This document shows positions 11,336 to 45,923 of a DNA stretch of 56,004 nucleotides, in pieces; within the stretch, counting starts at the first letter, position 1; each line of letters begins with the position of its first letter. The notes beneath the pieces were generated by a model. That model saw only the letters and a program-made list of their open reading frames with translations, was not told where the DNA came from and did no database searches. Source of the DNA: a virus (taxonomy: Duplodnaviria > Heunggongvirae > Uroviricota > Caudoviricetes); IMG/VR virus record IMGVR_UViG_2744054632_000003; one strand, written 5' to 3'. Both the position numbers and the translations under genes were made by a program.

Positions 11336-11664
11336 CAGTTCACCACCTGTTTAAACTCTGCGCTGAACTCAACACGCAACATACTGACCTGCGACGACCA
11401 TTTTGCGCAGGTCACCTTTATCTGCCTGTAACCATAAGGCGGCGTCCACAGAAAGGCCTTCCAGCCCCCGTGCTCAGCCAGAAACGACTCCAGCGCCGTG
11501 GCCTCCTCACGGGAGACAGACAGCGTCACGCTGTACGTTTTCAGGTCAGCGTTCAGCCCGGCAGGCGCACGCTGGGAATAGCCATCACCAAAGCGCACCT
11601 CCCTGACGGAAGGAGCCGATGTCACATCCATACCGGGTTTCACTTTCCAGCGGAAGGTCTTCAT
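11335..11664 (-). CDS. M: tail tip protein M
   Basis: MKTFRWKVKPGMDVTSAPSVREVRFGDGYSQRAP matches lambda M. Confidence 0.9.
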   Translation of the reverse strand: MKTFRWKVKPGMDVTSAPSVREVRFGDGYSQRAPAGLNADLKTYSVTLSVSREEATALESFLAEHGGWKAFLWTPPYGYRQIKVTCAKWSSQVSMLRVEFSAEFKQVVN

Positions 11665-14221
11665 CGTCCACCTCCGGAGAACAGGCCACCATCACGCATC
11701 TGTGTCTGAATTTCATCACGGGCACCCTTGCGGGCCATGTCATACACCGCCTTCAGAGCGGCCGGACCTATCTGCCCGTTCGTGCCGTCGTTGTTAATCA
11801 CCACATGGTTATTCTGCTCAAACGTCCCGGACGCCTGCGACCGGCTGTCTGCCATGCTGCCCGGTGTACCGACATAACCGCCGGTGGCATAGCCGCGCAT
11901 CAGCCGGTAAAGATTCCCCACGCCAATCCGGCTGGTTGCCTCCTTCGTGAAGACAAACTCACCACGGTGAACAATCCCCGCTGGCTCATATTTGCCGCCG
12001 GTTCCCGTAAATCCTCCGGTTGCAAAATGGAATTTCGCCGCAGCGGCCTGAATGGCTGTACCGCCTGACGCGGATGCGCCGCCACCAACAGCCCCGCCAA
12101 TGGCGCTGCCGATACTCCCGACAATCCCCACCATTGCCTGCTTAAGCAGAATTTCTGTCATCATGGACAGCACGGAACGGGTGAAGCTGCGCCAGTTCTG
12201 CTCACTGCCGGTCAGCATCGCCGCCATATTCTGTGCAATACCATCAAAGGTCTGCGTGGCTGCACTTTTTACCTGCGACATACTGTCCGTGGCGCTCTCT
12301 TCCCACTCACTCCAGCCGGACTTCAGGCCTGCCATCCAGTTCCCGCGAAGCTGGTCTTCAGCCGCCCAGGTCTTTTTCTGCTCTGACATGACGTTATTCA
12401 GCGCCAGCGGATTATCGCCATACTGTTCCTTCAGGCGCTGTTCCGTGGCTTCCCGTTCTGCCTGCCGGTCAGTCAGCCCCCGGCTTTTCGCATCAATGGC
12501 GGCCCGTTTTGCCCGTTGCTGCTGTGCGAATTTATCCGCCTGCTGCGCCAGCGCGTTCAGGCGCTCCTGATACGTAACCTTGTCGCCAAGCGCAGCCAGC
12601 TGGCGTTTGTACTCCAGCGTCTCATCTTTATGCGCCAGCAGGGATTTCTCCTGTGCAGACAGCTGGCGACGTTGCGCCGCCTCCTCCAGTACCGCGAACT
12701 GACTCTCCGCCTTCCACAAATCCCGGCGCTGCTGGCTGATTTTCTCATTTGCTCCGGCATGCTTCTCCAGCGTCCGGAGTTCTGCCTGAAGCGTCAGCAG
12801 AGCAGCATGAGCACTGTCTTCCTGACGATCGCCCGCAGACACCTTCACGCCGGACTGTTTCGGCTTTTTCAGCGTCGCTTCATAATCCTTTTTCGCCGCC
12901 GCCATCAGCGTGTTGTAATCCGCCTGCAGGATTTTCCCGTCTTTCAGTGCCTTGTTCAGTTCTTCCTGACGGGCGGTATATTTCTCCAGCGGCGTCTGCA
13001 GCCGTTCGTAAGCCTTCTGCGCCTCTTCGGTATATTTCAGCCGTGACGCTTCGGTATCGCTCTGCTGCTGCGCATTTTTGTCCTGTTGAGTCTGCTGCTC
13101 AGCCTTCTTTCGGGCGGCTTCAAGCGCAAGACGGGCCTTTTCACGGTCATCCCAGTAACGCGCCCGCGCTTCATCGTTAACAAAATAATCATCCTTGCGC
13201 AGATTCCAGATGTCGTCTGCTTTCTTAAACGCAGCCTCTGCCTTAATCAGCATCTCCTGCGCGGTATCAGGACGACCAATATCCAGCACCGCATCCCACA
13301 TGGATTTGAATGCCCGCGCAGTCCTGTCTGCCCAGGTCTCCAGCGTGCCCATGTTCTCTTTCAGGCGGCGGGTCTGGTCATCAAACCCTTTCGTTGCGGC
13401 CTCGTTCGCCGCCTGCAATGCCCCGGCTTCATCGCCGGAACGCTGCAACTGAGCAACATACGCAATCTGCTCCGCCGTCACGTTATGGAACTGGCGTGCC
13501 ATCGCCGTCAGCCCCGACGTCGGTCTGTGGTCAGCTTCCCGAAGGCTTCAGCGACCTTGTCCACCTCCACGCTGGATGCAGAGGAGAAACGCGCCACACT
13601 CTGGCTGATGGACGCAATCTGAGCCTCACCGCTTACCCCCGCCTTAACCAGTGCGCTGAGTGACTCGCTGGTCTGGTCAAACGTCAGCCCTGCCGCCTGC
13701 CCGGCTCTGGACAGGACCAGCATGCGATCTGCCGTCAGCCCCGACTGATTGCCGGAAAGGACCAGCGTTTTGTTGAAATCGGACAGGGTTGAGTTGCCCT
13801 GATACCAGGCATACGCCAGCGCACCGGTCGCCACCGCCAGCGAGGTGGCCCCGACCATCGGCAGGGTGAGCGCACCGGCAAGCCCCCTGAACATGGGGAT
13901 CATCCCGCCGAAGGAGTCCTTCACCTGACCACCCTGTTGCAGCAGGATCAGCCACGGACTTTGCCCGCCTGCAAGCTGCGTGGCCACGTCAGTGAACTGC
14001 GCAGGCAGCATACGCATGGCAGCTTTATACTGCCCAACGGAAATCCCCGCTTTCTGTGCAGCCAGCGCCTGTCGGCTCAGCGACTGTTCAACGACTGCCG
14101 CTGTTTTTTTCGCATCACTTTCCGTACCGGAAAAATGACGCCTGACTCTGGCCATCTGCTCGTCAAATCTGGCCGCATCCAGACTCAAATCAACGACCAG
14201 ATCGCCTACCGGTTCAGCCAT
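11661..14221 (-). pseudogene. H: tape measure protein H, split into two ORFs by a frameshift near 13503-13510
   Basis: 13508..14221 matches H N-terminus (MAEPVGDLVVDLSLDAARFDEQ...KLTTD) then reads RRRG-stop; 11661..13502 continues H (MARQFHNV...); junction gaccgacgtcgg versus lambda gacccgacgtcgg (recalled). Confidence 0.8.
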
Positions 14222-17602: not shown

Positions 17603-18379
17603 TTACGCCAGTTGTACAGACACGAACTCATCAGGATCAGCCAGCAGCATCAGCGGTGCTGACTGAATCATGGTGAACTCACGCGCCGGATCGCCGGTGG
17701 TCACCCAGTTTTTCGGGTAACGGGCAGAGGCGTTAATGCCTTCGCGCTGTGCGTCCGCATCCTGAATGCAGCCATAGGTGCGCAGACCGCGTGCCTGAGT
17801 GTTCCCCAGCACCATCGTGTTGTCCGGCAGGAAGTTCTTTTTGACGCCGTTTTCCACGTACTGTCCGGAATACACGACGATGGCCACATCGCCATACATC
17901 CCCTTGTAGGACACCGCTTTGCCCAGGTCTTTCACCGCTGTCTCCAGCTCGGAATGAGAGCCGCGACGAGTATCCAGCTTCTCCTTGACGGCTTTGAAGG
18001 AACGGAACAGCGCCCAGCCTTTCGGATCAAACACGATGATATTCACCACTCCGCTGGCGTTCAGCGCGTAGGCTTCGATATCGTCGGTCGGGTCATACGT
18101 GGACTTGTCACGCTTGCTCCACTCCGTGCCGCCGGACTGCGTGATGTTGTTGGCCGCACTGCGGCCCATATCCACCTCAACCGGATCGAAAGCTTCACCG
18201 GTCATGGTGTATTTGCCCTTAAGCACGGCAGAAACTGCCTGCATCTCTTCGACCTGGGCAATGGCCAGCTCTTCGTCACGCATGTTCTGCATAATGATGC
18301 GACGGCGGCGGTAAGCCGGGTCCGCCAGATTCTGCGGATCTTCATCCGGCAGGCGACGCAGGGTCATCTGCGGATTCAC
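17603..18379 (-). pseudogene. E: major capsid protein E, C-terminal ~260 codons, separated from its N-terminal part by the island
   Basis: VNPQMTLRRLPDEDPQNLADPAYRRRRIIMQNMRDEEL...EFVSVQLA matches lambda E residues ~83-341; frame has a stop immediately upstream. Confidence 0.9.
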
Positions 18380-18520
18380 CTCATGCTTCGGCTACATGAG
18401 TCAAATATGAAAGGATCTGAATGATTTTTAATGAAATAAATGGCTCTCTCTATCAAAATACAGCTAAAAAGCAATACACGTAGCAATACAGCGCTTCGCA
18501 AAGGTATGTCACTATATCTA

Positions 18521-19486
18521 CTAGTGCCAACCAGAATACGAATATCTTTGCTTTGCTTCTTCTGGGCTCATACCCACTAGTAAAGATACTAATTCAAAGT
18601 CAGGTTGTGGAATTGGAATCAATGCAGCCAAATATGCTGGCTTATTGAGAACAATTGTTGATAATCTAGCTTTATTCACCTTAGATAACTCAATATTACT
18701 TTCCGCTACCTTCGGGAATTCCATAATAAATGAATCAATTTCCCTTATGAGATAATCGATCAACGCCACTATACTTTCTGTCAAATCAATATATTTTGAC
18801 AACTCACTAGCATCAATTTCTTTCTTTATTTCATCCAATTTAATTTCAAACACTGGCTTGTCTTTACTGGCAATATTAGACAAACGTTTCTTTAAATCTG
18901 AATCAAGCTGATTCCTGACAATTAAACTTTTCAAAACAAAATTATAATTAAACAAAAAAGCATCAATTCGAGCAATATTCCTCCATGAGTTTCCAATTTC
19001 TTCATCTGACGGCATAATAAGTTCATGTTTTAGTATCTTGTACTTAATAAAAAAAACAAACCTCTCAAATAGAGTTTTATTAGCTGTGGGTATCTTTTTT
19101 ATAAATGAAAGACGGCTAATATCGAAATTCACCTCCCCGGCGTTAAATAAAAGTTCATTTATTGCCAGCGCTCTAAATATTGGATTTCTAGATCTCAAAC
19201 CAATATAACTACTTTTAATTGCCACAAGTGTATTTATCATCTGAAAAGAAACCATCATAAGCGTATTAGCAGAATTAAATTTCTCCGTTTCTATTTTAAT
19301 CTTCTCCTGCCTATTATTGATACAATAAGCAGTTAAGCCTCCCATAAGCGCCGATAAAAAAGATAATGCAATAGGGAATACATAATCTTTTGTATAATCA
19401 ACATCTGCTTTCAACATTAGTATTGCTTTAGCAATCAAAACTGCATCAGGGGTCATGTTAGAGCCGTCATTAAAAATTAAACACAA
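18521..19486 (-). CDS. AT-rich membrane-associated protein of unknown function (island cargo; candidate defence gene)
   Basis: Ile/Lys/Asn-rich 321-aa ORF with N-terminal hydrophobic segments; low GC versus flanks; sits at island end next to attL. Confidence 0.5.
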   Translation of the reverse strand: MCLIFNDGSNMTPDAVLIAKAILMLKADVDYTKDYVFPIALSFLSALMGGLTAYCINNRQEKIKIETEKFNSANTLMMVSFQMINTLVAIKSSYIGLRSRNPIFRALAINELLFNAGEVNFDISRLSFIKKIPTANKTLFERFVFFIKYKILKHELIMPSDEEIGNSWRNIARIDAFLFNYNFVLKSLIVRNQLDSDLKKRLSNIASKDKPVFEIKLDEIKKEIDASELSKYIDLTESIVALIDYLIREIDSFIMEFPKVAESNIELSKVNKARLSTIVLNKPAYLAALIPIPQPDFELVSLLVGMSPEEAKQRYSYSGWH

Positions 19487-20149
19487 TACCCATAAAATAT
19501 AACAGCTTATTGTTTAGAAAAGCAATATCATACACTCTATGATAAGCGTAATATCTTACAGGCATGGTGTGTTACGACACTTAATTAAACGTAATTTGCT
19601 AAAATTTTACACACAGAATCACACCAGGCTCTAACTCTCCTTTCATTACAATTGTAAGCATACAATTATCCTACCAGAACTTTATTGTTAAGCTCTCCCT
19701 TTTGAGCCCATCCCATAATGAATTGACGAAAGAACCGTATCTGTGGAGTAATCATTTCTGCGCGGTTCTATGTCGAAGACAAAATATGGTATGCGCATCT
19801 AGTCAGAGGGAAAGCAATTTTTCAGGGAAATATCATCTCTACATGGTTAAAACAACCAGAAGAAGTTATCAAGCAAGTTGGGTATGAAGATTTTCCTATA
19901 ATAGTAACGAAACGGGTTTCACCTGAGCGGTTGTGTTCGATCCGCCACAATACGCATAGGATGCCCTGTAATCCGTATTCTGCTTACTCAACAGCTTACC
20001 AGCAGGACTCGTAAGGCTGTTGCGATAGTGCAGAAGTAGGCCACGACCATAAAGTGAAGCCAGTGGCGCGTTATCGACTACTTTAGTGTAGAGCCTGATT
20101 TCAACGCAAGCGTGAGAGTTTTTTCTGGCGATAGGCCGTGACAAACAGC

Positions 20150-20330
20150 AACAAAATCAGAGAAAGGAAACGGCAGAGGCCAAAAAGCCCGTTTTCAGCG
20201 CCAGTCATTTCCTTTCTTTTCAGGGGGGATTTTAAATAAAAACATAAAGTTACGGCGAAGAAGAACGGAAACGCCTTAAACCGGAAAATTTCCATAAATA
20301 GAGAAAAACTGCGCGCCTGACGCCCCGTAA
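20150..20330. other. island cos site: cosB-like region and divergent cosN
   Basis: About 85 percent identical and colinear with prophage cos region 34950-35130; at the cosN position island has GCCTGACGCCCC where the prophage has AGGTCGCCGCCC. Confidence 0.65.
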
Positions 20331-20381
20331 CGTTCTGGATCGCCGGAAAGGACCCGCCAGCCAGAGCGGGCCCTAATTTCA

Positions 20382-20765
20382 TCAACCAATCAGCTTATAG
20401 CGACCATCCCGTGCATTGCGGCGTACACGCTCAATCTTGAGGCATAGCGCCGCATCTGGCTTTTTTGGGACAGGTACGCGGCAATATTCAGAAGCGCGAG
20501 GAATATTATTTATCCAGTCGATCACTTCACTTAAATACCAGGCCTTACGCCCTTCCGTAACCTGCACACGCTCCGGGAACTCTCCACTAGCCTCAAGGTT
20601 TAGCAGTGTACGACGACTCAGGGTTGTAATTTCCATCACCTGATTCATATCAACAAGGCGCTCGCTTAAACACATTTTGTCAGCGATAGCTTTTAATTCC
20701 TCTACAGCTGGATTCGGGTACATCATTTCGGCAATTGGCTTAAGGTCATTGTAATCATTCTGCAT
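20382..20765 (-). CDS. AlpA-like HTH protein adjacent to island cos (candidate packaging-redirection or regulatory protein)
   Basis: LSRRTLLNLEASGEFPERVQVTEGRKAWYLSEVIDWI resembles the AlpA/excisionase HTH fold; gene ends immediately at the island cos. Confidence 0.5.
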   Translation of the reverse strand: MQNDYNDLKPIAEMMYPNPAVEELKAIADKMCLSERLVDMNQVMEITTLSRRTLLNLEASGEFPERVQVTEGRKAWYLSEVIDWINNIPRASEYCRVPVPKKPDAALCLKIERVRRNARDGRYKLIG

Positions 20766-20776
20766 TGTATCCCCCT

Positions 20777-21118
20777 TTACACACGAGCCAGCGGCTGAAC
20801 AGAAATACCTGAGCCAACAAACGCTGCAACCTTTACTGACAGTTCTTTAACAGACTCAGGCCAGTTCAGAGCATCAACATTTAAGACACCTGTCTTATAG
20901 ACCTGAGCCTGTGTTTTTTTCGCGGTGTCGATTTGTACAGCGGAAACATAAACCGCTTTACCTACGCTCGAACCATCCCATACCACCAGTGCACCTGTTG
21001 CATCTTCCTGCATCAGTGGCGTAAATGCAGGAATTACCCCTTTATTAGCTGAAAATATCCCCAGCGTAGTCACCAGTGCTTCAGTGCCAGCCATGAGTTC
21101 AGTGTAATGAGTAGCCAT
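20777..21118 (-). CDS. head decoration protein D homologue (island-encoded)
   Basis: TPLMQEDATGALVVWDGSSVGKAVYVSAVQ...VYKTGVLNVDALNWPES aligns with lambda [32 protein letters not shown]...[17 protein letters not shown]. Confidence 0.7.
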   Translation of the reverse strand: MATHYTELMAGTEALVTTLGIFSANKGVIPAFTPLMQEDATGALVVWDGSSVGKAVYVSAVQIDTAKKTQAQVYKTGVLNVDALNWPESVKELSVKVAAFVGSGISVQPLARV

Positions 21119-21127
21119 TGCTCCCCC

Positions 21128-22168
21128 TTAGCCAATGCGAACGGTAACAAAACGATTGATGCGGGCCGGTATTGGCTGTGGTGCTGAATGTGTCTGCACA
21201 TATTCAATAGCCGGATCACCAGGCACAATATAGTTTTTCGGTGCAAGTTCGGCTTTAGTCAGCCCCATTCGGATTAGCTCCGGATCCTGAATACCGCCAT
21301 AGGCGACAATCCCCTGAAGAGCCGTATTGCCAAGCACCATCAAATCAGGATCAAGGAAATGTTTTTCAGTTCCGTCCTCGTCGGTATAACGCCCGCTGTA
21401 AACAACAATCGCAACATCGCCCATATATCCTTTAAAACTCACCGAATCACCAAGGTCTTTAAGGGCCGTTTCCAGTTCGGAATTAGAACCACGACGGGTA
21501 TCCAGAGCCTCTTTTATCGCTCTGAATGAACGGTATTTCTTCCATACATTACCGCCCATAATGATGATATTAGTGACGCCCTCACTAAATTCTGCGTAGC
21601 TCTCAATATCATCATTTGGATCAAAAGTTTCTTTATCCTTACCTGACCACTCAGTACCGCCAGACTGAGTGATGATATTTTGTGGTTTAATATTCCAGTC
21701 CAGCTCATAACGTTCAATACCATCGCCCTCAATGATATTTTTCCCCGTTGTGATTGCCTGAACGGCAAGCCATTCAATACGTGCACGAATAGCTTTAGCT
21801 TGATTTACAATCGCCTGTTTAACTTTAATATTACGCGCCCCAAAAGCATTGTATTGCTCAGGTGATACACCAGCAGGGCGCACAGCTAACTTATTTGGAT
21901 CAATGCTGCTTTTCGGCTTCATATAGCCTGGACGAATTGTTTTTGATTCGTACCCTTCGTCACGTGAAACTTTACTACCCACCATAGGAGAACAAAACGC
22001 TGCAATTGGGATATTTGGATCGTCGATTGTATCAAGAATAATATCGCGCGATCCAAACATTACCGAGCGAGTAAAAAACAAACTGGTAAACAACGCATTT
22101 AGTTGTTTTTGTACATCTACAGCATTAACCACCTGTACAAGCTGGGTAGGCGAATATAAATCAACCAT
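21128..22168 (-). CDS. major capsid protein E homologue (island-encoded, divergent)
   Basis: ITQSGGTEWSGKDKETFDPNDDIESYAEF...RSFRAIKEALDTRRGSNSELETALKDLG...VAIVVYSG colinear with lambda E; start taken at MVDLYSPTQLVQ with AAGAGG 6 nt upstream. Confidence 0.8.
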   Translation of the reverse strand: MVDLYSPTQLVQVVNAVDVQKQLNALFTSLFFTRSVMFGSRDIILDTIDDPNIPIAAFCSPMVGSKVSRDEGYESKTIRPGYMKPKSSIDPNKLAVRPAGVSPEQYNAFGARNIKVKQAIVNQAKAIRARIEWLAVQAITTGKNIIEGDGIERYELDWNIKPQNIITQSGGTEWSGKDKETFDPNDDIESYAEFSEGVTNIIIMGGNVWKKYRSFRAIKEALDTRRGSNSELETALKDLGDSVSFKGYMGDVAIVVYSGRYTDEDGTEKHFLDPDLMVLGNTALQGIVAYGGIQDPELIRMGLTKAELAPKNYIVPGDPAIEYVQTHSAPQPIPARINRFVTVRIG

Positions 22169-22385
22169 ACGCATCCTCTTTGCATTCATTAAAAATAATT
22201 GTGGATATATGCTATCACCGATATTTGTCATGCGAACACATGCAACCGAGTGCAATGTTGTATAAAGTTTTGGGGTGACAACTTCAGTGCGAACAATTAG
22301 TGTTAATATATTCACTCCCTTTGGTCGGGATTTATGTAGCATGCCGGAAAATTTATTTTTTCCGGCCTTTTTTTATTGGCAATAT

Positions 22386-22835
22386 TTAAAATGGGATATC
22401 ATCTCCCCATTGCTCATTATCTCCCACTGGTGGCTGGCTTCCTTGCTGATCTGCCTGTTGTTTTGCTCTGTTCAGTGCGTCAGTAGCCTGCCCCTGTTGG
22501 CCTTTTTTGCCGCCCGGTCGCACCGATCGCGCACTGATTACGCTGTCTGCGATAACCTGCCAGCCCTGCCGCGTTTCGCCGTTCTGTCCAGTCCACTGGC
22601 TCATCTGCATGTTACCCGCCACGCTCAGGAGTTCGCATTTGTGATGCTTTGCCAGCGCGTCGGCTTGTCTGCCAAACGCCAGGACAGATAACCACATCGT
22701 CGCCTGACCGTCATCCGACTGACTGCAAGGCAGTGATACCGCCATACGCGCCAGCGTCATGGGGGTGCCCTTGCTGGTCTGTTTTGTCTGCGGGTCGTCC
22801 ACCAACCGCCCGTAAACTGATATTTGCGCCGTCAT
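22386..22835 (-). CDS. single-stranded DNA-binding protein-like
   Basis: OB-fold-like N-terminus and Gly/Gln-rich tail ending in acidic DDIPF, the SSB C-terminal signature. Confidence 0.65.
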   Translation of the reverse strand: MTAQISVYGRLVDDPQTKQTSKGTPMTLARMAVSLPCSQSDDGQATMWLSVLAFGRQADALAKHHKCELLSVAGNMQMSQWTGQNGETRQGWQVIADSVISARSVRPGGKKGQQGQATDALNRAKQQADQQGSQPPVGDNEQWGDDIPF

Positions 22836-23077
22836 GCTGCCTGCTCTCCGGACTTAATATTGATTGTTGTCACTTCCTCCGCTTCAGCAATCTCCCGTTC
22901 GGTCAGAGTGGCAAAGTTTGCAGCCGCCGTTGTCATGAATGCGCTAATCAGTTCGGGATGTGCTTTCGCGTATCCTTCCCCGGCGTTGCGGTCGATGATT
23001 TTTATCGACACCCTTAACCAGTGTTCAGTCAAATCAAGGGCGTGCGATTGTGATTTTTTTGTGTGCTTCGCTGTCAT
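22832..23077 (-). CDS. hypothetical protein (81 aa)
   Basis: ORF overlapping start of SSB-like gene by 4 nt; no recognised family. Confidence 0.35.
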   Translation of the reverse strand: MTAKHTKKSQSHALDLTEHWLRVSIKIIDRNAGEGYAKAHPELISAFMTTAAANFATLTEREIAEAEEVTTINIKSGEQAA

Positions 23078-23128
23078 AGGCTTTATCTCACAGCAGTAAA
23101 TTAAAATTTTTGCGTTTTAACCCTTCAC

Positions 23129-23351
23129 CTGTTCACCTTTTGATATTTTCTCTTTTAATTCATAATGTTAATGGGTGAACAGTTTCACAAAAACTATTCA
23201 CCAACTGTTCACCACTGTTCACCCTTGAAGCTCAATAAACAATCAAAAAGGTGAACAGTGAATAGTTTGGTGAACAGTTCATAAATAACTGTTCACCCTA
23301 TAATACACTGATATAAAAGATATTTATGACAGGGTGAACAGTGGTGAACAG
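23129..23351. repeat. iteron cluster, probable island replication origin
   Basis: At least 10 copies of GGTGAACAG or its complement CTGTTCACC in both orientations in an AT-rich stretch just downstream of the primase-helicase gene. Confidence 0.7.
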
Positions 23352-23364
23352 TTATTCCATAAGT

Positions 23365-25185
23365 TTAATTTTTGCTATCGTCATTAGTGACCGATACACA
23401 TGATGGCATCCAGTCCTCTGATTCCTCCGTCAGTGTCACGTTTGAACGCAAACCGTGCTTCGTTTTCCGTTTCATATACTCCCTGCCATATTCCGCCATT
23501 GCCCCCGGCATATCTTTACCGAAGCGCGTCAGTGTTACAGGTTTACCAAACCCATGTGCCCTCATATAAGCCAGATAGGCATGATAGAGATACCTGCGTG
23601 GGCTGAATGGCACAATTTCAGCATTACCCACTAATAGGCCATCACACATTACCGATGCCATGAGATAGCCGCAGAAGTCCACCAGCGAATCCCCCTCTCG
23701 CTTTATCGCCAGTGCTTCTTCAGATTTCTGCTGCTCATATAACAGGCGTCTGGCTTCGTCCTGATCAGCAAACCGTGTAAGCAGATGACGAATCACTACC
23801 GCCAGCTCACCTTCTATTTTTTCCGCCAGCATCGAATCGCGTTCGTTCTCCGGTACAACTTCCGAAAAATTGAATATCACCCGACGACGTGAGATCCCCC
23901 CGCTGCGGTCACTGAATGACATGGCGTTATTGTTAACCGCCAGTACTACTGCCGGAATACGCGTTGAATAGGGGGCTTTGTGTTTCGGGTCAATTGCCAC
24001 CTTGTCACCGCCTGTAATGGCCTTAATCCCTGCCCCATCACCAGCGTAGCGGGTCATATCCGGCATGATAATCAGCGAAAAGCCAACCACTAACGCACGT
24101 TCCCTTGCATCTTCCAGCGCCTTCATGCTTGCTGATACTGTATTAGCCTTACCCGCCAGCATGGTGCAAATCTCCGCCATCACACTTTTACCACTTCCCC
24201 CCGGCCCTGTTACCTCAATGAATAACTGCCAGTCGTACCGGTTCGCCAGCACCATGAATAATGCCGCCAGTACGCGATCTGCCTTGCGGTCATTCTCAGC
24301 CACCGAACGGCGCAACCACTTCCAGAAATTCGGCGCATGTGTTGCCAGCGTTTCCCCCTCTGCTGGTGGGCTGAAAGGTAATTCACTGGCAATTAACAAC
24401 CAGTCGTTTTTGTTATGCTCCCGAAAATTACCAGTTCTGGTATCAAATACCCCGTTACTGAATCCAATCAGGTTACGGGCAGTATTCCCCATTACAGGCA
24501 AACTTAACTTCATGGTATCTACCGCCGATTTAATGGCGTTCTGCGAATAGCTGATCTCCGCATCAATGAAAATCTGCGCCATAGCACGCTGTAACTCTTT
24601 ATCCTGAACCGGCTCCCATACAACGCCGTTGTAATGATGAACGGTGTCAGAGTCGGCATTGATTGCCAGTTCGCCGCCGTAATGTGCAAGGAGAACTTCA
24701 CCGCGCTGGCTGGCCCCCATCTGATTCAACGCCAAAGATGAAGCACGCTCGTCATTTTTGCGCTCTGCCTTCTTCACTGGCAGTTCAATCACCAGACTTT
24801 CCCCATGCTCCGCTTCAGCTTTTAGGCCGACAAGGCGCGGAGTCCAGTCTTCAGGCTCTCGATCAACAAAGCTACGGTAACAACGTGCTTCCTTTACGCC
24901 TGCAATAGCAAGTAATGTCGCAACCTTCGTCAGACTTTTCTCTGCAATCTTTCCGGCACGATAAACACGCACATAATGACGGCCTTCATCGATAATTTGC
25001 ATATCATCCAGGTTTTCCAGTTGTTCCGTACCCAGAATGACTGGTGGTGTATCATCTGCTGCAATATGCTTACCTGCCCATTCATTCCATTCTTTTGCAT
25101 GGCTCCAGGCATCACTGCCAGCAAAAATGATGACTTCCGTCATTTTGTCGCGCGGTTGGTATTTTAAGTTCGGAGCACGTTTCAT
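23365..25185 (-). CDS. primase-helicase (P4 alpha / D5-like SF3 helicase family)
   Basis: Walker A GPGGSGKS, followed by conserved SF3 helicase-like region; GGAGGT 5 nt upstream of ATG at 25185. Confidence 0.8.
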   Translation of the reverse strand: MKRAPNLKYQPRDKMTEVIIFAGSDAWSHAKEWNEWAGKHIAADDTPPVILGTEQLENLDDMQIIDEGRHYVRVYRAGKIAEKSLTKVATLLAIAGVKEARCYRSFVDREPEDWTPRLVGLKAEAEHGESLVIELPVKKAERKNDERASSLALNQMGASQRGEVLLAHYGGELAINADSDTVHHYNGVVWEPVQDKELQRAMAQIFIDAEISYSQNAIKSAVDTMKLSLPVMGNTARNLIGFSNGVFDTRTGNFREHNKNDWLLIASELPFSPPAEGETLATHAPNFWKWLRRSVAENDRKADRVLAALFMVLANRYDWQLFIEVTGPGGSGKSVMAEICTMLAGKANTVSASMKALEDARERALVVGFSLIIMPDMTRYAGDGAGIKAITGGDKVAIDPKHKAPYSTRIPAVVLAVNNNAMSFSDRSGGISRRRVIFNFSEVVPENERDSMLAEKIEGELAVVIRHLLTRFADQDEARRLLYEQQKSEEALAIKREGDSLVDFCGYLMASVMCDGLLVGNAEIVPFSPRRYLYHAYLAYMRAHGFGKPVTLTRFGKDMPGAMAEYGREYMKRKTKHGLRSNVTLTEESEDWMPSCVSVTNDDSKN

Positions 25186-25469
25186 TTGTTACCTCCGGCA
25201 ACTAACATTGCCCGAATTTTACGGATATAGCCTGCGGCACGCCTCTGATTATCTGTCTTGCAATTTTTTACCAGAATGAAATCTCTTTCGAACTGCTGAC
25301 GCGGCATAACACATTCAAAATCATAACCATCACGCAAATAAGAGACACGACGATCATCAACCGAAATAATCTTTACCCGATAGCCATAGCTGTCTTTGAA
25401 AATATCCCCAAGGCTGATTTTTGAATGAGTTTGACCGCTGGCAATAAAGCCAGAAAATTTATTTTTCAT
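25182..25469 (-). CDS. hypothetical protein (95 aa)
   Basis: ORF translationally coupled to primase gene; no recognised family. Confidence 0.4.
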   Translation of the reverse strand: MKNKFSGFIASGQTHSKISLGDIFKDSYGYRVKIISVDDRRVSYLRDGYDFECVMPRQQFERDFILVKNCKTDNQRRAAGYIRKIRAMLVAGGNK

Positions 25470-25472
25470 TTT

Positions 25473-25697
25473 TTATTCTCCGGTATAGCTCTGGTCGTGT
25501 ATTTTTATAGCTTCATCCAGCTCTTTGATGACAGGATCAAGTAACGTAATTAACGCTCCAGCTAAATTAGCATCCCGTTCATCGTGTTCCGCATTTGTTG
25601 TCCCATCAAGCCAGGTTGATAAGATTTCTCGCATATTTTTGCCACAAACGAGCGCGTTTTCAGCATGTGTCAGCACTTTAAAATAAAGATCATTCAT
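25473..25697 (-). CDS. hypothetical protein (74 aa)
   Basis: ORF in same operon; no recognised family. Confidence 0.35.
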   Translation of the reverse strand: MNDLYFKVLTHAENALVCGKNMREILSTWLDGTTNAEHDERDANLAGALITLLDPVIKELDEAIKIHDQSYTGE

Positions 25698-26055
25698 GGC
25701 ACACCTCCTGACGAATACGGGCGGCGAATATCATCACGCAGCCAGTTGGGGATTGCTGGCGGGCTTCCTGTTCGCTGGTGGCCTCGATGGTAATCACGCG
25801 CGGTTGTGCCGTACTCAGGGCGATAAAACGCCAGATGAAATTGTTTTCACATTTCTGAATAAACAGCGTGTTTTCTTCCCGCCCTTTCCAGAAAGCCGCA
25901 GTATAGCCCATCTCCTTAACCATCTTGCGCGCATCAACCAGCGTGTCAGCGGCTACATGTACCGTAGTTGCTCCATCTGCTATGCGATCGCGATGTAGCG
26001 CCAGAAAGATGTATATAAATTTAGGGTGAGTTTGGGTATGCTGTGTTCCAGCCAT
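25690..26055 (-). CDS. hypothetical protein (121 aa)
   Basis: First gene of leftward island operon; no recognised family. Confidence 0.35.
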   Translation of the reverse strand: MAGTQHTQTHPKFIYIFLALHRDRIADGATTVHVAADTLVDARKMVKEMGYTAAFWKGREENTLFIQKCENNFIWRFIALSTAQPRVITIEATSEQEARQQSPTGCVMIFAARIRQEVCHE

Positions 26056-26085
26056 AGTCGTTACTCCAGTTAACGGTTTGTGGTT

Positions 26086-26190
26086 AGACGCCTAGGTGTG
26101 TTGCGAGCACCCTAGGGCGTTGTTTATAGGTATAACATCATGTTAATGTGTGTACCTATTCAACACTGATGCTAAGCAATAGGTACACAC
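26086..26190. promoter_or_regulatory. divergent promoter/operator region with two palindromes
   Basis: Perfect 15-bp inverted repeat ATGTGTGTACCTATT / AATAGGTACACACAT and imperfect palindrome CGCCTAGG...CCTAGGGCG between divergent operons. Confidence 0.5.
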
Positions 26191-26385
26191 ATGTCAACTA
26201 CAATTCAAAGAGATAAGCAGCCAAAAGGAGCCGGCAAAGCCCCTGCGTTTCAGATCCGAATCAATCCTGAACTCAAAGAACAGATGGCTGAATCAGCAGC
26301 TCAGGAAGGAATGAGCTTGGCCAATTGGATTAAAGAATTAGTTCGTGCTGAGCTTCGCCGTAAAGGTATAGAACCTAAAGGCTAA
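26191..26385 (+). CDS. ribbon-helix-helix (Arc/CopG-like) DNA-binding protein
   Basis: 64 aa; FQIRINPELKEQMAESAAQEGMSLANWIKELVRAEL fits the RHH beta-alpha-alpha pattern. Confidence 0.55.
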   Translation: MSTTIQRDKQPKGAGKAPAFQIRINPELKEQMAESAAQEGMSLANWIKELVRAELRRKGIEPKG

Positions 26386-26417
26386 TTTTTTTAATTTTTA
26401 TTGAATAGGATATTCAA

Positions 26418-27101
26418 ATGACTCCAACTCCTGACGATGCTGTATTCACTGCATCAAACATTATAAATTTCTTCGTGGCACTCGGGACTTGCACAGCAGT
26501 GTTAGTTGCATTAATTGCTAAAAAGCAATCATCTTTTGAATCAACATTTTCTCTCATGTTATCTCAACATAACAATGCTCTAAATGATCTTAGAAAAAAA
26601 TCAAATTACTCAGAGTTAATTAATAAAATGATGAATGGATTGGTTTCTTTAAAAGACACTAATACACTGATGCACAATCATGATGCTGTTTTTGGAAGCT
26701 ACTTCAGAATATTATATCATCTATTGAAGTTCATTGATGAAAATGCTGGATACCATCCCTTTGATCTAGATCGTAAAAAAACCTATACAAGCCTTGTCCG
26801 TGCACATCTAGATAATGAAATAACGTATTTACTTGCAATAAACTGTGCACATGCTAACAGTGAAAATCAATATCATTTTTATAAAACATTGATTGAGCGC
26901 TATGCCATGTTAGAACATTTAATCTTGGATAAATCAACGCTATTGGACTATACCCCTCCAGATTTAAATGAATATCAAAAAGATTTGCGCGTAGCAACAA
27001 TAGTGGTTACCGATGATATAAAAACTATTTTTAACGAGATTGCAACAGTATATTATAAGAGCGCATTTGGAAAAAACCCTGATTTAAAAAATTTCCTGTA
27101 A
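26418..27101 (+). CDS. AT-rich membrane-anchored protein of unknown function (island cargo; candidate defence gene)
   Basis: N-terminal TM helix IINFFVALGTCTAVLVALIA; AT-rich codons; co-oriented with RHH gene. Confidence 0.45.
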   Translation: MTPTPDDAVFTASNIINFFVALGTCTAVLVALIAKKQSSFESTFSLMLSQHNNALNDLRKKSNYSELINKMMNGLVSLKDTNTLMHNHDAVFGSYFRILYHLLKFIDENAGYHPFDLDRKKTYTSLVRAHLDNEITYLLAINCAHANSENQYHFYKTLIERYAMLEHLILDKSTLLDYTPPDLNEYQKDLRVATIVVTDDIKTIFNEIATVYYKSAFGKNPDLKNFL

Positions 27102-27127
27102 GATATAGGGAGGAATACCTCCCTAAC

Positions 27128-27358
27128 TTACCATTCACCTCTTATCCAAGCTTGAATCTCAGAGAGTCTATAAGCCACCGCCGTAGATCCGATTTTGATT
27201 CGCTTGGGGAATTTCCCCTCCTTTTCAAGCTTCCAGCGTGTGCTGTTCGCAAGAGTGGTTAGCTCCCGACATTCTTTCTCACGGATCATTCGGTCAATGT
27301 TAGGAATGTACTCCAGACCCTTTTTATCAACAATTGCCATTTTTTTCATGTTAACCAA
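27128..27358 (-). CDS. alpA: AlpA family transcriptional regulator / excisionase-like
   Basis: Small HTH protein immediately downstream of integrase; LEYIPNIDRMIREKECRELTTLANSTRWKLEKEGKFP. Confidence 0.7.
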   Translation of the reverse strand: MVNMKKMAIVDKKGLEYIPNIDRMIREKECRELTTLANSTRWKLEKEGKFPKRIKIGSTAVAYRLSEIQAWIRGEW

Positions 27359-28586
27359 CCTTTTGTTTGAGGATTGTCACTTTTGAATCAGCACCTGCGA
27401 TGCTATTGAGATATGTAGTCCAGAGTTCCAGAGCATCCAGTTTTTTAGCCATAAACTTACTCCGGTTGTAAACACCTGCCACGCCAGGTAGCGCATGGCC
27501 TAACAGTTGTTCTACTACATAAAATTCAACACCGAGATCACTTAGATGAGTAGATAGCGTTCTTCTAAGGTCGTGTAGTGACCATTGTTTTTCATGGCCC
27601 AAACGTTTACCGATTTTCCCCCCAATCTTGCTTACGCTTTCTCTAATTCGCAGACTTCCCAGCACATAACCAGTATGTTTTGTCTCTTCGTGAACATCCG
27701 TTACCCACTGTCGTAGAATTTCAGGTACTGGTCTGACGATTTCAACACCAGTTTTTGAGTGATCTTTTGGTACAGTCCAAACCCAACTTTCGAGATCCCA
27801 TTCGCTCCATTCTGATAATCGGGCTTCACTCATTCGACATCCAAATACTGTACAAAGCACAAACATTTTTCGCGTGTATTCAGACATTAGTTTTAAATCA
27901 GGCTCGACAAAAATTGCCTTCCAGAGCTGGCCGAGTTCGGCTTCATCCAGAACCCGATCCCGCTTACCTGCAATCTGCCCCACATCACTCATGCGCAAAT
28001 CCTTTAAAGCATCACACGTCGCGTACTGGCGTACCCGACAAAAACGAAGAGCTAATTTAGTGTCAGAAAAAACATACGCCGCCATAACTGGTGCATTACG
28101 TTTAATTCGGTCAAAACAGTCCAGCCATTCATATAGGTGAGTGTCATTTACGGGCAAATGACCGATATAGGGAAAGATATGCTTTCGAAATCTGCCAAGC
28201 GTTACAGCATGAGTTTTACGACGCACCTTACAGTAATTTTCATACCAGTAATTTAGTGCATCCTCCACTGTGACCGGCTTTAAGCGTTCTTCAGCCTGAA
28301 TCTTAATCTGGATACGCGGATCACGTTTGTCAGCCAACCAACCACGGCACTCGTCGCGCTTTTCCCTTGCCTGTTTGAGTGACATATCAGGATATTTACC
28401 CAACGTTAGCCAGACCGGAGCAGCCCGGCCACCTGCTAACCTGTAGAAGAAAACAAAGCTCACAGCCCCTTTAGTACTCACACGAATAGAAAGCCCCTTT
28501 CCATCAGCAATGGTGATCTGCTTTTCTCTGGGTTTCCCCAGATATCCTTTAAGCGCTTTGTCGCTCAGTTTGTTCTCGCCAGCCAT
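27351..28586 (-). CDS. int: tyrosine integrase (P4-type)
   Basis: Conserved HDLRRT and LLGH motifs of tyrosine recombinases; start taken at MAGENKL; adjacent to attR. Confidence 0.85.
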   Translation of the reverse strand: MAGENKLSDKALKGYLGKPREKQITIADGKGLSIRVSTKGAVSFVFFYRLAGGRAAPVWLTLGKYPDMSLKQAREKRDECRGWLADKRDPRIQIKIQAEERLKPVTVEDALNYWYENYCKVRRKTHAVTLGRFRKHIFPYIGHLPVNDTHLYEWLDCFDRIKRNAPVMAAYVFSDTKLALRFCRVRQYATCDALKDLRMSDVGQIAGKRDRVLDEAELGQLWKAIFVEPDLKLMSEYTRKMFVLCTVFGCRMSEARLSEWSEWDLESWVWTVPKDHSKTGVEIVRPVPEILRQWVTDVHEETKHTGYVLGSLRIRESVSKIGGKIGKRLGHEKQWSLHDLRRTLSTHLSDLGVEFYVVEQLLGHALPGVAGVYNRSKFMAKKLDALELWTTYLNSIAGADSKVTILKQKVG

Positions 28587-28748
28587 TTTTAGCCCCAAAA
28601 AGCAATACAAGCTGCAATACAGAGATGATTGCAACACACAGATAACGAGGAAAATTCAGTGAAAGCGCCAGATAAACTTATTCTTTATTATCAAAAGATT
28701 AAGTGTAAAAACCAGCAACTACACGAAAGCCTCAGAAAGCCATGCTAA

Positions 28749-28994
28749 GTGCTTCGGCTTGACATATCCCGGCGTAAATTCAGAGGTGGAGCCGCCACGG
28801 GAGCGGATAACCTCACCGGAAACAATCGGCGAAACGTACAGCGCCATGTTTACCAGCCCCGGAATTTGTGAGAGATAGACTTTCTCCGTGGTGAAGGGAT
28901 AGCTCTCACGGAAAAAGAGACGCAGAAACAGCGGATCAAACTTAAATTTCTGCTCATTTGCCGCCAGCAGCTGGGCGGTTGTGTACATCGACAT
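28749..28994 (-). pseudogene. E: major capsid protein E, N-terminal 82 codons, interrupted by island insertion
   Basis: MSMYTTAQLLAANEQKFKFDPLFLRLFFRESYPFTTEKVYLSQIPGLVNMALYVSPIVSGEVIRSRGGSTSEFTPGYVKPKH then reads LAWLSEAFV-stop into island DNA. Confidence 0.9.
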
Positions 28995-29049
28995 AAAAAA
29001 ATCCCGTAAAAAAAGCCGCACAGGCGGCCTTTAGTGATGAAGGGTAAGG

Positions 29050-29382
29050 TTAAACGATGCTGATTGCCGTTCCGGCAAACGCGGTCCGTTTTTTCGTCTC
29101 GTCGCTGGCAGCCTCCGGCCAGAGCACATCCTCATAACGGAACGTGCCGGACTTGTAGAACGTCAGCGTGGTGCTGGTCTGGTCAGCAGCAACAGCAAGA
29201 ATGCCAACGGCAGCACCGTCGGTGGTGCCATCCCACGCAACCAGCTTACGGGTGGAGGTGTCCAGCATCAGCGGGGTCATTGCAGGCGCTTTCGCACTCA
29301 ATCCGCCTGGCGCGGTTGCGGTATGAGCCGGGTCACTGTTGCCCAGCGGCTGGTAATGGGTAAAGGTTTCTTTGCTCGTCAT
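29050..29382 (-). CDS. D: head decoration protein D
   Basis: [43 protein letters not shown] matches lambda D. Confidence 0.9.
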
Positions 29383-34939: not shown

Positions 34940-35126
34940 CTCATTCCACGGACAAAAACAGAGAAAGGAAACGACAGAGGCCAAAAAGCTCGCTTTCAGC
35001 ACCTGTCGTTTCCTTTCTTTTCAGGGGGTGTTTTAAATAAAAACATTAGGTTACGGCGAAGAAGAACGGAAACACCTTAAACCGGAAAATTTTCATAAAT
35101 AGCGAAAACCCGCGAGGTCGCCGCCC
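34940..35126. other. prophage cos site (cosB and cosN)
   Basis: Reverse complement matches the recalled lambda left end GGGCGGCGACCTCGCGGGTTTTCGCTATTTATGAAAATTTTCCGGTTTAAGGCG; 12-nt cohesive-end sequence at 35115-35126. Confidence 0.85.
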
Positions 35127-35325
35127 CGTAACCTGTCGGATCGCCGGAAAGGACCCGCAAAATGATAATAATTATCATCTACATGTCACAACGTGCATCT
35201 ACGCCATCAAACCACGTCAAATAATCAATTATGACGCAGGTATCGTATTAATTGATCTGCATCAACTTAACGTAAAAACAACTTCAGACAATACAAATCA
35301 GCGACACTGAATACGGGGCAACCTC

Positions 35326-37763: not shown

Positions 37764-38939
37764 ATGGATATAACTTGTTTAGAATGTGGCAATGTTCTTG
37801 ACGACCCAACTGTAGCTTGCGATAAATGCGGTGCCACGCCTCATGTTGTAGTGCTGGGCAAACAATCGTACTTTCCTATTGGTGCTGTAACAGCAAATCT
37901 TGAAAAAAATGATTCAAGAGCATTTGATTATCGATTAGGTGAAGTTTGGGATCTAAAAAATGAAGTCACATCTGAATTCATAACCAGAATTGAGAAAAAA
38001 TTTAGCCGAAAAAACAAATTTCATAACTTCCTAGACTCAGATCACAACCCTTCATCCATTCCTACGATCCTAAAAAAATACATTAATAAGAATAATGAAT
38101 TCATTGATTTATCTAGAGCTATAATAGAGAAGCTTAAACATAATGCTAATAACGAATCGAGAGTTGCCCAACTTCAGGGGGGGAGCGTTGTTTTCATCCA
38201 CTATAAGTCTACCGAACCAGAGGATTTGGGGAAACTTCTAATCGTAATGGTTGATAAACAAAGCGCCTATGACTTTGATTCGGATAAGTTGACCCCAACA
38301 AGATTAAATCCAATTAATACCGATGCCTTACGGCAGGCTGCGATGTTCGATTTAACTTTATTCGAAGCCAGTTATCCAGAAAACAAGGGTGACTCATATG
38401 TACATTTCTTGCAAGGTAAATCTAAAAGCGATTTTTTCAAAGACTCATTAGGTTGCCGACATGATTCGGACAATAAAAGAAGCATTCAGCAATTATTCAG
38501 TGCTATAGATATTTTTGCTAGTAAAAACTCACTCGGTCGTGTACTGCGTGATACTATTGACAATGAAGTTAAATCCTTACTGGAAAAAAAATCAAAAGAT
38601 AAACACGGAAATAAGTCCGTTAAGATAGAGGATATTTCAAAAATAATTGACTCATGCCTGACTGATTCACACAAATGTAAGGGAACGTTTGTCGATTTTG
38701 TTAATCTTAATGGTTTCCAGATTGACCCTCAATTTGAACCAACTCCTAAAGCAGCTGAAAGCGCGCTTACAATTGAAGTGGCAGATAACGACAATAATTT
38801 TAAGTTGAAAATAATGCGTGGAGCTATTGGAGACGAAAAGTCAAATAAGCCTGTAATTCTCACTGACAACAAATGCGAAATTGTGATAAAATTGAGTCAG
38901 GCAAATTATGATGAACTCAAAAGATATAGAGACAGCTAA
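37764..38939 (+). CDS. zinc-ribbon + NdpA/YejK-like (NA37 family) protein, AT-rich moron gene 1
   Basis: N-terminal CLECG...CDKCG ribbon; GGSVVFIHYKS...LLIVMVDKQSAYDFD...YVHFLQGKSKSDFFKDSLGC aligns with recalled YejK GGIVLFCHYRY...LLVAVLNNLSSMRVN...[23 protein letters not shown]. Confidence 0.5.
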   Translation: MDITCLECGNVLDDPTVACDKCGATPHVVVLGKQSYFPIGAVTANLEKNDSRAFDYRLGEVWDLKNEVTSEFITRIEKKFSRKNKFHNFLDSDHNPSSIPTILKKYINKNNEFIDLSRAIIEKLKHNANNESRVAQLQGGSVVFIHYKSTEPEDLGKLLIVMVDKQSAYDFDSDKLTPTRLNPINTDALRQAAMFDLTLFEASYPENKGDSYVHFLQGKSKSDFFKDSLGCRHDSDNKRSIQQLFSAIDIFASKNSLGRVLRDTIDNEVKSLLEKKSKDKHGNKSVKIEDISKIIDSCLTDSHKCKGTFVDFVNLNGFQIDPQFEPTPKAAESALTIEVADNDNNFKLKIMRGAIGDEKSNKPVILTDNKCEIVIKLSQANYDELKRYRDS

Positions 38940-38941
38940 TA

Positions 38942-40156
38942 ATGACAATTGCTGATGACTTATCAAGATTAGCGCAGATTATTAACGGAGCCTCAAGCAG
39001 AGTTGAGGGCTACTACACTGTCATAAGTCTTGAAGAAAGCATTGTTATTGTAAATAGTTCTGAAATAATTAGACTGTTACAATCTATAGGTTATAAAAAG
39101 GCAACAACCTGCATCGAAAATAATGAAATTTGGCTAGATCGCCAAGCTTCATCTTGGGATGATGCTATAATTTATGAGAATGTTGAGTCTTTTTGGTCTA
39201 GAGTAAACACCCAAAACGCTCTTCCGAAAAATTATATCATCGGAACGCCGTTAATACTCCCTACTTCTAAGAATGAAAGCATCGAAAAAATCCATATTTT
39301 CTTTATGTGGAAAGATATCCTTTCATTAATTGCTGATCATCATAACAGTGACTGCTCTGTCTTATTTTTCACCAATGAAGACAAAAGTTATACAGTCGAA
39401 CTCACGCATTTTTTACAATATAGCGAGATTAATCGCTTATCGAACTCGTCTCTTAAATATGAAATTATAAAGGAGCTTCTCGACACAATAAAAATCAATG
39501 ATTTACACAAAAGCGAGCGCAAGCTCGTTATACGCTCAGCCATAAACGAAGTATTTAAAGCAAATGGTACGTTCAATTTCTTTGACTTGCTTAACTCTAC
39601 TGAACTCGTCAGGAAAAAATATGATGAACTATATGAGATTTACACAAAGAGGTTTTCTGTAAATAAAATTCTTAACGAACTCGATGAGAAAAATCTTGAG
39701 TTCACGAGTAAAATTAACGAATTCATATCATCTAATCAGACAAAAGCATTGACTATTCCCGGTGCATTAATAGCAGCTGGTGGCTTAGTGAAGGCTAATG
39801 AAACAACCGAAGCAATATTGATTATCGCAGGACTTTGGATGATAAAAAAAGTCAATTACATTTCTATTGAGATATTCAATGAAACATTCGACAACTTACG
39901 TTCTCGAGTGGAGTCCGCTTTCGATAAGTATTTAAAGTTTGAAGAAAATAAAGAAATCAAAGATAATGCAGATAGTATTAAGAGTAGCATTACAGGTTTG
40001 ATTGATAAAGCTAAAAAAAGGATGAGAACTGTTAAATATCTCGCATCAGCCATGTTTTATGGAGGCCTTATTTACGTTGGATATAAACAGTTCCCAGTCT
40101 TTTTTGAAAAATCGGCAGTAAATCTATTTTATTTTTTATGCCATACTATAAGCTAA
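38942..40156 (+). CDS. membrane protein with C-terminal TM helices, AT-rich moron gene 2
   Basis: 404 aa; starts 3 nt after gene 1 stop; hydrophobic segments ALTIPGALIAAGGLV, AILIIAGLWMI, ASAMFYGGLIYVGY; no recognised domain. Confidence 0.5.
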   Translation: MTIADDLSRLAQIINGASSRVEGYYTVISLEESIVIVNSSEIIRLLQSIGYKKATTCIENNEIWLDRQASSWDDAIIYENVESFWSRVNTQNALPKNYIIGTPLILPTSKNESIEKIHIFFMWKDILSLIADHHNSDCSVLFFTNEDKSYTVELTHFLQYSEINRLSNSSLKYEIIKELLDTIKINDLHKSERKLVIRSAINEVFKANGTFNFFDLLNSTELVRKKYDELYEIYTKRFSVNKILNELDEKNLEFTSKINEFISSNQTKALTIPGALIAAGGLVKANETTEAILIIAGLWMIKKVNYISIEIFNETFDNLRSRVESAFDKYLKFEENKEIKDNADSIKSSITGLIDKAKKRMRTVKYLASAMFYGGLIYVGYKQFPVFFEKSAVNLFYFLCHTIS

Positions 40157-45523: not shown

Positions 45524-45856
45524 TTAATGTGGTGTGCTTCGTGACAATAAATTAATAACCAACACACCGGCACAAATCAACATCATGCCTATAATGGCTG
45601 GCAGGTCCAGCCGTTGGCCGAAAAATCCCCATGACAGTAAGCTAATCAGGACAATACCGACTCCTGACCAGATAGCATAAGCAATCCCTGTAGGAATATA
45701 AGCCAGCGTCTGAGCTAATAACCAGAATGATGCACAATAACAAATAATTGTACCAACAGATGGCCATAACCGTGTAAAACCTTCTGAAAACTTCATTAAG
45801 GTTGTACCAATGACCTCTGCAAGTATTGCACCACCAAGATAAATATAAGGGTTCAT
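45524..45856 (-). CDS. emrE: small multidrug resistance efflux transporter EmrE
   Basis: MNPYIYLGGAILAEVIGTTLMKFSEGFTRLWPSVGTIICYCASFWLLAQTLAYIPTGIAYAIWSGVGIVLISLLSWGFFGQRLDLPAIIGMML matches EmrE. Confidence 0.95.
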   Translation of the reverse strand: MNPYIYLGGAILAEVIGTTLMKFSEGFTRLWPSVGTIICYCASFWLLAQTLAYIPTGIAYAIWSGVGIVLISLLSWGFFGQRLDLPAIIGMMLICAGVLVINLLSRSTPH

Positions 45857-45923
45857 AGCATATTCTTTCCTGTTCAAACTGGAGAGAATTGTACTACAGT
45901 TTGAAATCAACTCACCTGTTTCA

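Follow-up and report, generated by a model that had tools for sequence, protein, structure and literature searches.

A phage satellite island lodged in the capsid gene E of a lambda-like prophage is very probably a member of the known HE-PICI 11capE family

The stretch of DNA analyzed here, called the window below, comprises the 56,004 nucleotides of the viral record IMGVR_UViG_2744054632_000003. It carries a lambda-like prophage, adjoining tRNA-Arg and intD, whose major capsid gene E is interrupted by an island of 10,356 bp (18394-28749, minus strand). The late genes of the prophage lie on the minus strand in the order cos, Nu1, A, W, B, C, D, E, FI, FII, Z, U, V, G, T, H ... J, with a canonical cosN (GGGCGGCGACCT, 35115-35126, minus strand) upstream of Nu1 and A, and the products of these two genes are close to those of lambda (639 of 641 residues identical for gpA and 178 of 181 for Nu1). 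The 5' fragment of E, corresponding to codons 1-82 (28750-28994, minus strand), runs from 28994 to 28750 and its frame continues for 9 codons of island sequence (LAWLSEAFV*) up to a stop at 28719; in an identical locus, the PGAP annotation calls this fragment a partial major capsid protein. The 3' fragment, codons 79-341 (17603-18393, minus strand), runs from 18393 to 17603 and is 98-99.9% identical to the E genes of lambda and lambdoid phages. The split falls at codons 79-82, and the 5' fragment covers positions 1-78 in the Phage_cap_E profile (current Pfam release). No replacement for the 3' end of E is supplied by the island, which adds only the 9 unrelated codons and the stop.

The 10-bp direct repeat TGCTTCGGCT occurs twice in the window, at 18384-18393 (the distal att identity block) and at 28750-28759 (the integrase-proximal one), for a chance expectation of about 0.11 copies; two or more copies were obtained in 0 out of 100 shuffles. 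In its coding-strand form, AGCCGAAGCA, this core marks each of the two junctions and has no other occurrence in the window. Within E it covers nucleotides 236-245, across codons 79-82, which encode KPKH. Removing positions 18394-28759 in silico, that is the island and one copy of the repeat, fuses the two minus-strand fragments into an open reading frame (ORF) of 1,026 nucleotides, with 341 codons and a stop. Compared with lambda E (J02459), the reconstituted gene shows 19 nucleotide differences in 1,026 and its product 3 residue differences in 341. The limits of the island, placed between the two core copies, are further marked by a drop in G+C content, from 0.53-0.61 in the prophage to 0.31-0.50 in the island interior, and by the point at which similarity to complete E genes sets in: about 3,200 other E. 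coli genomes match an uninterrupted E, and the match starts precisely at position 28750. A natural empty site is provided by a related prophage with an intact E (contig L111), which aligns window position 28750 directly to 18391. This contig (IMGVR_UViG_2913112809_000002) bears its unoccupied attB at 7600-7680 with the synonymous core allele AACCCAAGCA, and has a cos of its own with the variant cosN described below. The presence of a satellite-like island inside E is thus confirmed, as are the particulars given in the original prediction: a lambda-type E whose fragments rejoin into a 341-codon frame once the island and one repeat copy are deleted, and a direct repeat lying in the KPKH codons.

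We then considered whether the arrangement could be an assembly chimera, or a random insertion flanked by a repeat that arose by chance. The integrase gene of the island was found in 175 of 5,426 complete E. coli genomes (at least 80% coverage), and the junction between int and E in 173 of the 5,426, thus in 173 of the 175 integrase carriers at the megablast threshold. This represents about 3% of all complete E. coli genomes, or about 5% when only the roughly 3,200 with a match to the lambda-type E 5' segment are counted. Since the same int-side junction recurs in 173 independent complete genomes, it is not an assembly artefact. The core, found only twice in the window against 0.11 copies expected, also argues against a random insertion, as do a family motif located at fixed distances from the core (see below) and the experimental validation of the type element (PMC10111431), and a chimera or chance event can for practical purposes be dismissed. 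Copies of the island are 97-100% identical in many unrelated strains and in different E alleles; for strains EC-10 and 24AR0376, identity reaches 100% along an 11.1-kb query (window 18000-29100). Integration outside E was also looked for: E is the target in nearly all integrase carriers, and an apparent exception (H11, strain K56-43-un) proved to lie in a capsid gene as well, that of a more divergent lambdoid prophage.

The backbone genes of the island all share the direction of the helper late operon: int, alpA and the primase gene are on the minus strand, like Nu1 through J, and point the same way as the late gene they interrupt. Of the four zones that PMC10111431 sets in order for the family, Integration, Bro, Replication and Late, three are seen in sequence, namely Integration (int, alpA), Replication (DUF4222, primase, iterons, SSB) and Late (E-like, D-like, alpA-like, cos). 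Next to the integrase-proximal junction, as had been predicted, are encoded a tyrosine integrase (27351-28586, minus strand; Pfam Arm-DNA-bind_3 and Phage_integrase) and an AlpA protein, excisionase or regulator (27128-27358, minus strand; Pfam Phage_AlpA, E = 1.5e-15). Small early genes follow on the minus strand, encoding Icd-like (25690-26055), phrog_2196 (25473-25697) and DUF4222 (25182-25469) proteins. The predicted primase-helicase with an iteron origin was likewise recovered: the protein (23365-25185, minus strand, 606 residues) matches Pfam D5_N, DUF5906 and Pox_D5 and the NCBIfam P4-family primase C-terminal domain, and just downstream of its gene an A+T-rich spacer (23129-23351) contains nine exact GGTGAACAG iterons in both orientations, which makes it the probable replication origin. 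These are 9 of the 10 copies of GGTGAACAG in the window, where 0.37 would be expected. Beyond it come a phrog_1231 small protein (22832-23077, minus strand) and a single-stranded DNA-binding protein (SSB; 22386-22835, minus strand). The Late zone comprises a homologue of the lambda major capsid protein E (21128-22168, minus strand, 346 residues; Pfam Phage_cap_E, E = 3.7e-41), a homologue of the head decoration protein D (20777-21118, minus strand; Pfam HDPD, E = 4.5e-15), a second AlpA-like helix-turn-helix regulator immediately upstream of cos (20382-20765, minus strand; Pfam Phage_AlpA, phrog_2790) and the cos itself (20151-20357, minus strand). No terminase, portal, protease or tail gene was detected in the island by Pfam, PHROGs or annotation. 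The gene list of the original prediction was therefore right on the lack of terminase, portal and tail genes, and incomplete in that it omitted the E-like gene, the D-like gene and cos; to state that the island has no structural genes would be wrong, because it encodes capsid and decoration homologues.

The original prediction knew of no E. coli satellite with this target, a view that is out of date. Tommasini, Mageeney and Williams (2023, NAR Genom Bioinform 5:lqad036, PMC10111431; bioRxiv July 2022) described the HE-PICI family, phage-inducible chromosomal islands (PICIs) that are helper-embedded, with 201 elements at the site E:Phage_cap_E:80 and 290 more at 13 other prophage late-gene sites. 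Among them, Eco567.11capE (hereafter 11capE) is an 11-kb PICI in the lambda-type E of an E. coli NRG857c prophage; its attL/attR identity block spans 10 bp, and it carries a capsid gene of its own. The integrase gene of the window shares 99.7% nucleotide identity over 1,240 nucleotides with that of 11capE (genome H79, NRG857c), which places it in the 11capE clade and makes a phylogeny unnecessary. A 5.7-kb backbone (window 25871-20151) is 98.9% identical to 11capE, with the same gene content and annotated order, and the two elements also share the KPKH insertion point, the 10-bp identity block, the co-orientation with the late operon and a cos segment with a variant cohesive-end 12-mer. On the island side, the int-proximal junction reads as printed in the supplementary alignment of PMC10111431. 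The supplement also lists the core 'agccgaagca' for E_Phage_cap_E_80 members whose helper is at site 'R' (tRNA-Arg).

A further signature of the family is a doubled TGTATTGC motif (consensus tgTGTATTGCantgTGTATTGCa), present as two copies of the same orientation, one placed 81 +/- 2 bp upstream of the attP centre and the other 132 +/- 2 bp downstream of it (PMC10111431). In the window, copies were found on the minus strand at 18471-18490 with no mismatch and at 28602-28621 with 1 mismatch. Calculated for the 23-nucleotide motif and relative to the attP centre, the distal copy (18470-18492, minus strand, exact match) ends about 81.5 bp upstream and the int-side copy (tgTGTATTGCagcTTGTATTGCa, 28601-28623, minus strand) starts about 131.5 bp downstream, the same distances as in 11capE. 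In its sequence the island also has the characteristics of a Gram-negative PICI, a type of element of 10-20 kb which a helper phage mobilises (Fillol-Salom et al. 2018): its 10,356 bp hold int, alpA, pri, ori and a helper-type cos, and no lysis, tail or most head genes. We conclude with high confidence that the insert is an HE-PICI of the published 11capE family, at site E:Phage_cap_E:80, in a lambda-like prophage at tRNA-Arg (argU/DLP12). The central proposal of the original prediction, a satellite integrated site-specifically in E of its probable helper and silencing E until it excises, corresponds point by point to the published description (PMC10111431). The element is consequently already known: it belongs to a family that has been described and studied by experiment, and occupies the commonest site of that family, so that the novelty claimed for it does not hold.

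The window copy differs from 11capE in a few respects. Its core allele is AGCCGAAGCA instead of AACCCAAGCA, both encoding KPKH and both appearing in the supplement of PMC10111431, and its helper is at tRNA-Arg, whereas that of 11capE is at icd. Moreover, the alignment of the two elements breaks twice, between 27125 and 26092 and from 20151 to the distal end (18394-20150), defining two variable cargo slots. Slot 1 (26191-27101) lies on the plus strand, opposite to the backbone, and encodes a YlcI/HicB-like ribbon-helix-helix protein (26191-26385; Pfam HicB/RHH_1) and a putative abortive-infection protein (26418-27101; Pfam putAbiC, with weak PADLOC AbiC/AbiP matches), in place of a different hypothetical gene in 11capE. 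Slot 2 holds a gene of 32% G+C (18521-19486, minus strand) for a 321-residue protein of unassigned function, which had no match in Pfam, NCBIfam or PADLOC and fell in PHROGs only into the unnamed family phrog_21267. At this place 11capE carries HEPN and DUF262 genes and H11 (K56-43-un) an Abi protein with a full terS. The annotations of other relatives also include TIR, restriction-endonuclease and DUF2971 genes.

Several observations weigh against the assignment of the island to a functional HE-PICI. The HE-PICI paper places a 'Bro zone' in these elements, yet no Bro-N domain was matched by Pfam in the island, where the Bro position is held by the YlcI-like, putAbiC and Icd-like genes. A scan of the island with Rfam for the P4-type CI, seqA, isrK and C4 RNAs gave sub-threshold chance matches only. 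The cohesive-end 12-mer of the island, GGGCGTCAGGCG at 20314-20325, differs from the GGGCGGCGACCT of the helper and of lambda at 5 of 12 positions, the cosB regions being conserved. The tape-measure gene H of the helper (11661-14221, minus strand) has a 1-nucleotide deletion in a run of C at about 13524 (window 13503-13550) by comparison with E. coli EC-10, and the resulting frameshift leaves two ORFs of 237 and 613 residues; judging from this sequence, the composite may not make infectious particles unaided. Finally, virions of the type satellite or of its helper were never detected (PMC10111431), so that transfer is no more than presumed for the whole family.

The frameshift and the lack of virions from the type element are also what would be anticipated if the island were a stranded remnant, an HE-PICI by descent that has become immobile and is kept as a defence-gene island in a defective prophage. 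Both slots do hold cargo, with a putative abortive-infection gene in slot 1 and, in slot 2, a gene located where relatives have HEPN and DUF262 or Abi. However, no trace of decay is visible: the core copies are perfect, both doubled motifs are present, and the ORFs for the integrase, AlpA, primase, SSB, capsid and decoration proteins are full length, several being the same RefSeq proteins as in other copies. The 97-100% identity among copies in unrelated strains and E alleles argues instead for recent movement. The deletion in H may reflect either a genuine defect or an error of sequencing in the C run; if real, it would leave the helper unable to make tails by itself. On balance we hold an immobile remnant to be improbable.

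With respect to the rest of the helper, correspondence with the EC-10 annotation points to accessory genes at window positions 37764-40156 on the plus strand and 43741-45267 and 45524-45910 on the minus strand. By the same correspondence, the interval from Q to the lysis genes encodes a nucleoid-associated protein and a 404-residue hypothetical protein, the nin region contains emrE and the gene of a YbcK-type recombinase, and iss is located downstream of the lysis genes, before Nu1. This accessory gene set is typical of DLP12-site prophages.

The label 'P4-type', given to the integrase in the original prediction, is appropriate only for the families of the integrase and primase; the element as a whole is a PICI with a lambda-type cos. 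A P4-like satellite would share with it the integrase arm-binding domain, AlpA and the P4-family primase C-terminal domain, as well as a dependence on the structural genes of a helper. In contrast to P4, no homologue of Psu, Sid, Delta or Epsilon was found in the Pfam and PHROGs scans of the island ORFs, the cos is lambda-type and not P2-type, the helper is a lambda-like siphovirus prophage, the island is not at a tRNA site, and the Rfam scan revealed no P4 CI or isrK RNA. A P4-like satellite is thus very improbable. Outside the HE-PICIs, similar layouts are known from Gram-negative cos PICIs such as EcCICFT073 (Fillol-Salom et al. 2018 ISME J; 2019 Mol Cell), which have in common with the window island the int-alpA-pri order, a size of about 10 kb, lambdoid helpers, a capsid-gene homologue, cos packaging without a terminase of their own and variable accessory genes. 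EcCICFT073 is found at a site in the chromosome, and its interaction with the helper is solely in trans, whereas the island of the window lies within its helper. A match to the primase gene at 78% made 'Escherichia phage vB_KppS-Ant' (LR881103) a candidate for a packaged relative with defined ends; it was rejected as a member of this family, since it is 16.5 kb long and encodes a terminase, a portal and a capsid protein itself.

The capsid and decoration homologues call for another possibility, in which the island is a capsid-replacement module: its E-like and D-like proteins would build its heads, perhaps smaller ones, the helper E would be dispensable, and the disruption of E would be pure interference. 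Both homologues are full length and in the late-operon orientation; the first shares 42% identity over its full length with the reconstituted helper E and the second 38% with the helper D, and the idea of a 'backup copy' was raised in PMC10111431. Nevertheless, no portal, protease/scaffold or head-tail connector gene accompanies them among the island genes, and the capsid genes of related Gram-negative PICIs are dispensable for transfer, packaging of those elements taking place as phage-length concatemers (literature quoted in PMC10111431). We consider such a module unlikely, while granting it a small but real chance. The cf-PICIs (Alqurainy et al. 2023) likewise encode a major capsid protein. 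Their head module is complete (portal, protease/scaffold, connectors, TerS) and the helper provides them with tails only, whereas the island of the window has capsid and decoration homologues only, and membership in this class was rejected.

The island cos was identified by a BLAST comparison between the island and its helper, as a segment of 207 bp 87.9% identical to the helper cos region at 34952-35158, with a lambda-type cosB. The equivalent segment of 11capE is 258 bp long and shared at 90% identity; its cohesive-end alleles are not discussed in PMC10111431. We found in 11capE the same variant 12-mer as in the island of the window. A canonical cosN in the island was also sought, and GGGCGGCGACCT with at most 2 mismatches gave one chance-level match, inside the primase gene. 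To see how the alleles are distributed, 80 viral-contig loci were retrieved through the second alpA-like gene of the island, regardless of cos: 46 have the variant cosN, 30 the canonical one and 2 rare alleles, the cosN of the last 2 being unreadable. Among these loci, the commonest canonical-allele sequences have a different cosB and a TerS/Rpp-like gene. In a collection of 50,697 phages, the best match to the variant cos core was 85.7%. An allele specific to satellites was at first suggested by the first 22 variant viral contigs, 22 of which were island contexts, and was abandoned when an 18-mer scan found four contigs without any satellite gene upstream. In three of them the variant cosN lies immediately upstream of Nu1 and A genes that share 98-100% identity with those of lambda; the fourth, L129, shares its upstream flank with one of these three contigs and ends before Nu1. 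Because the helper gpA is identical at 635 of 641 residues to the gpA of one variant-cosN prophage, the helper terminase can probably cut the island cos.

In EcCICFT073 the cosN is phage-like, the cosB is different and the Rpp protein retargets TerS. The island of the window has, conversely, a helper-type cosB, a different cosN allele and no gene after cos, where related satellites have a TerS/Rpp-like ORF. That the cosN mismatch was selected, as a cos-allele layer of the satellite-helper conflict reversing the Rpp/cosB strategy, seems to us rather unlikely. If it were so, the mismatch could prevent the ends of the satellite from pairing with those of the helper, and chromosomes of the unexcised composite with one end at each cos could become dead ends. 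In some members of the family a full-length Nu1-like small-terminase gene directly follows the island cos (L006 5346-5888, K56-43-un), and at four IMG/VR loci its product is about 72% identical to lambda Nu1. In 11capE a post-cos ORF of 64 codons (L005 9979-10173, NRG857c) opens with the start codons of Nu1. Neither the Nu1-like gene nor the 64-codon ORF, kept in 11capE and lost here, is found in the window copy, and no TerS-like match was obtained among its other small ORFs with Pfam or PHROGs.

Under the HE-PICI reading, the features seen in the sequence, namely insertion at a 10-bp core, disruption of E without replacement, an orientation shared with the late operon, a self-contained replication module and a lambda-type cos, can be assembled into a course of events that is tentative beyond the integration itself. 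The tyrosine integrase of the island recombined the 10-bp core in the KPKH codons, leaving the helper E split and unable to yield capsid protein, because the island brings no replacement for the 3' end of E. For the type element, quantitative PCR and deep sequencing after mitomycin C established a precise excision of the composite, its replication and a late excision of the satellite that restores E (PMC10111431). By analogy with it, SOS induction would lead the whole composite to excise and replicate, and the satellite would excise late, at about 2 h, through Int and AlpA, restoring E. Transcription of the late operon would read into the embedded island. Once excised, the island may replicate from its iteron origin, and its concatemers would be cut at the island cos by the helper Nu1/A terminase and packaged into particles made by the helper; four units of 10.36 kb, or 41.4 kb, would fit a lambda-sized head. 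Delayed expression of E would lower the yield of the helper, to the benefit of the satellite. That the helper E cannot be expressed until the satellite departs is the consequence proposed by the authors who described 11capE (PMC10111431).

The architecture and the gene-integrity mechanism read here from the raw sequence are those published in PMC10111431. The island belongs to a family by which variable cargo, in part defence-like, is transported from strain to strain. In this arrangement the parasite sits in the capsid gene of the very virus that it exploits, and the satellite gates the helper's capsid gene.

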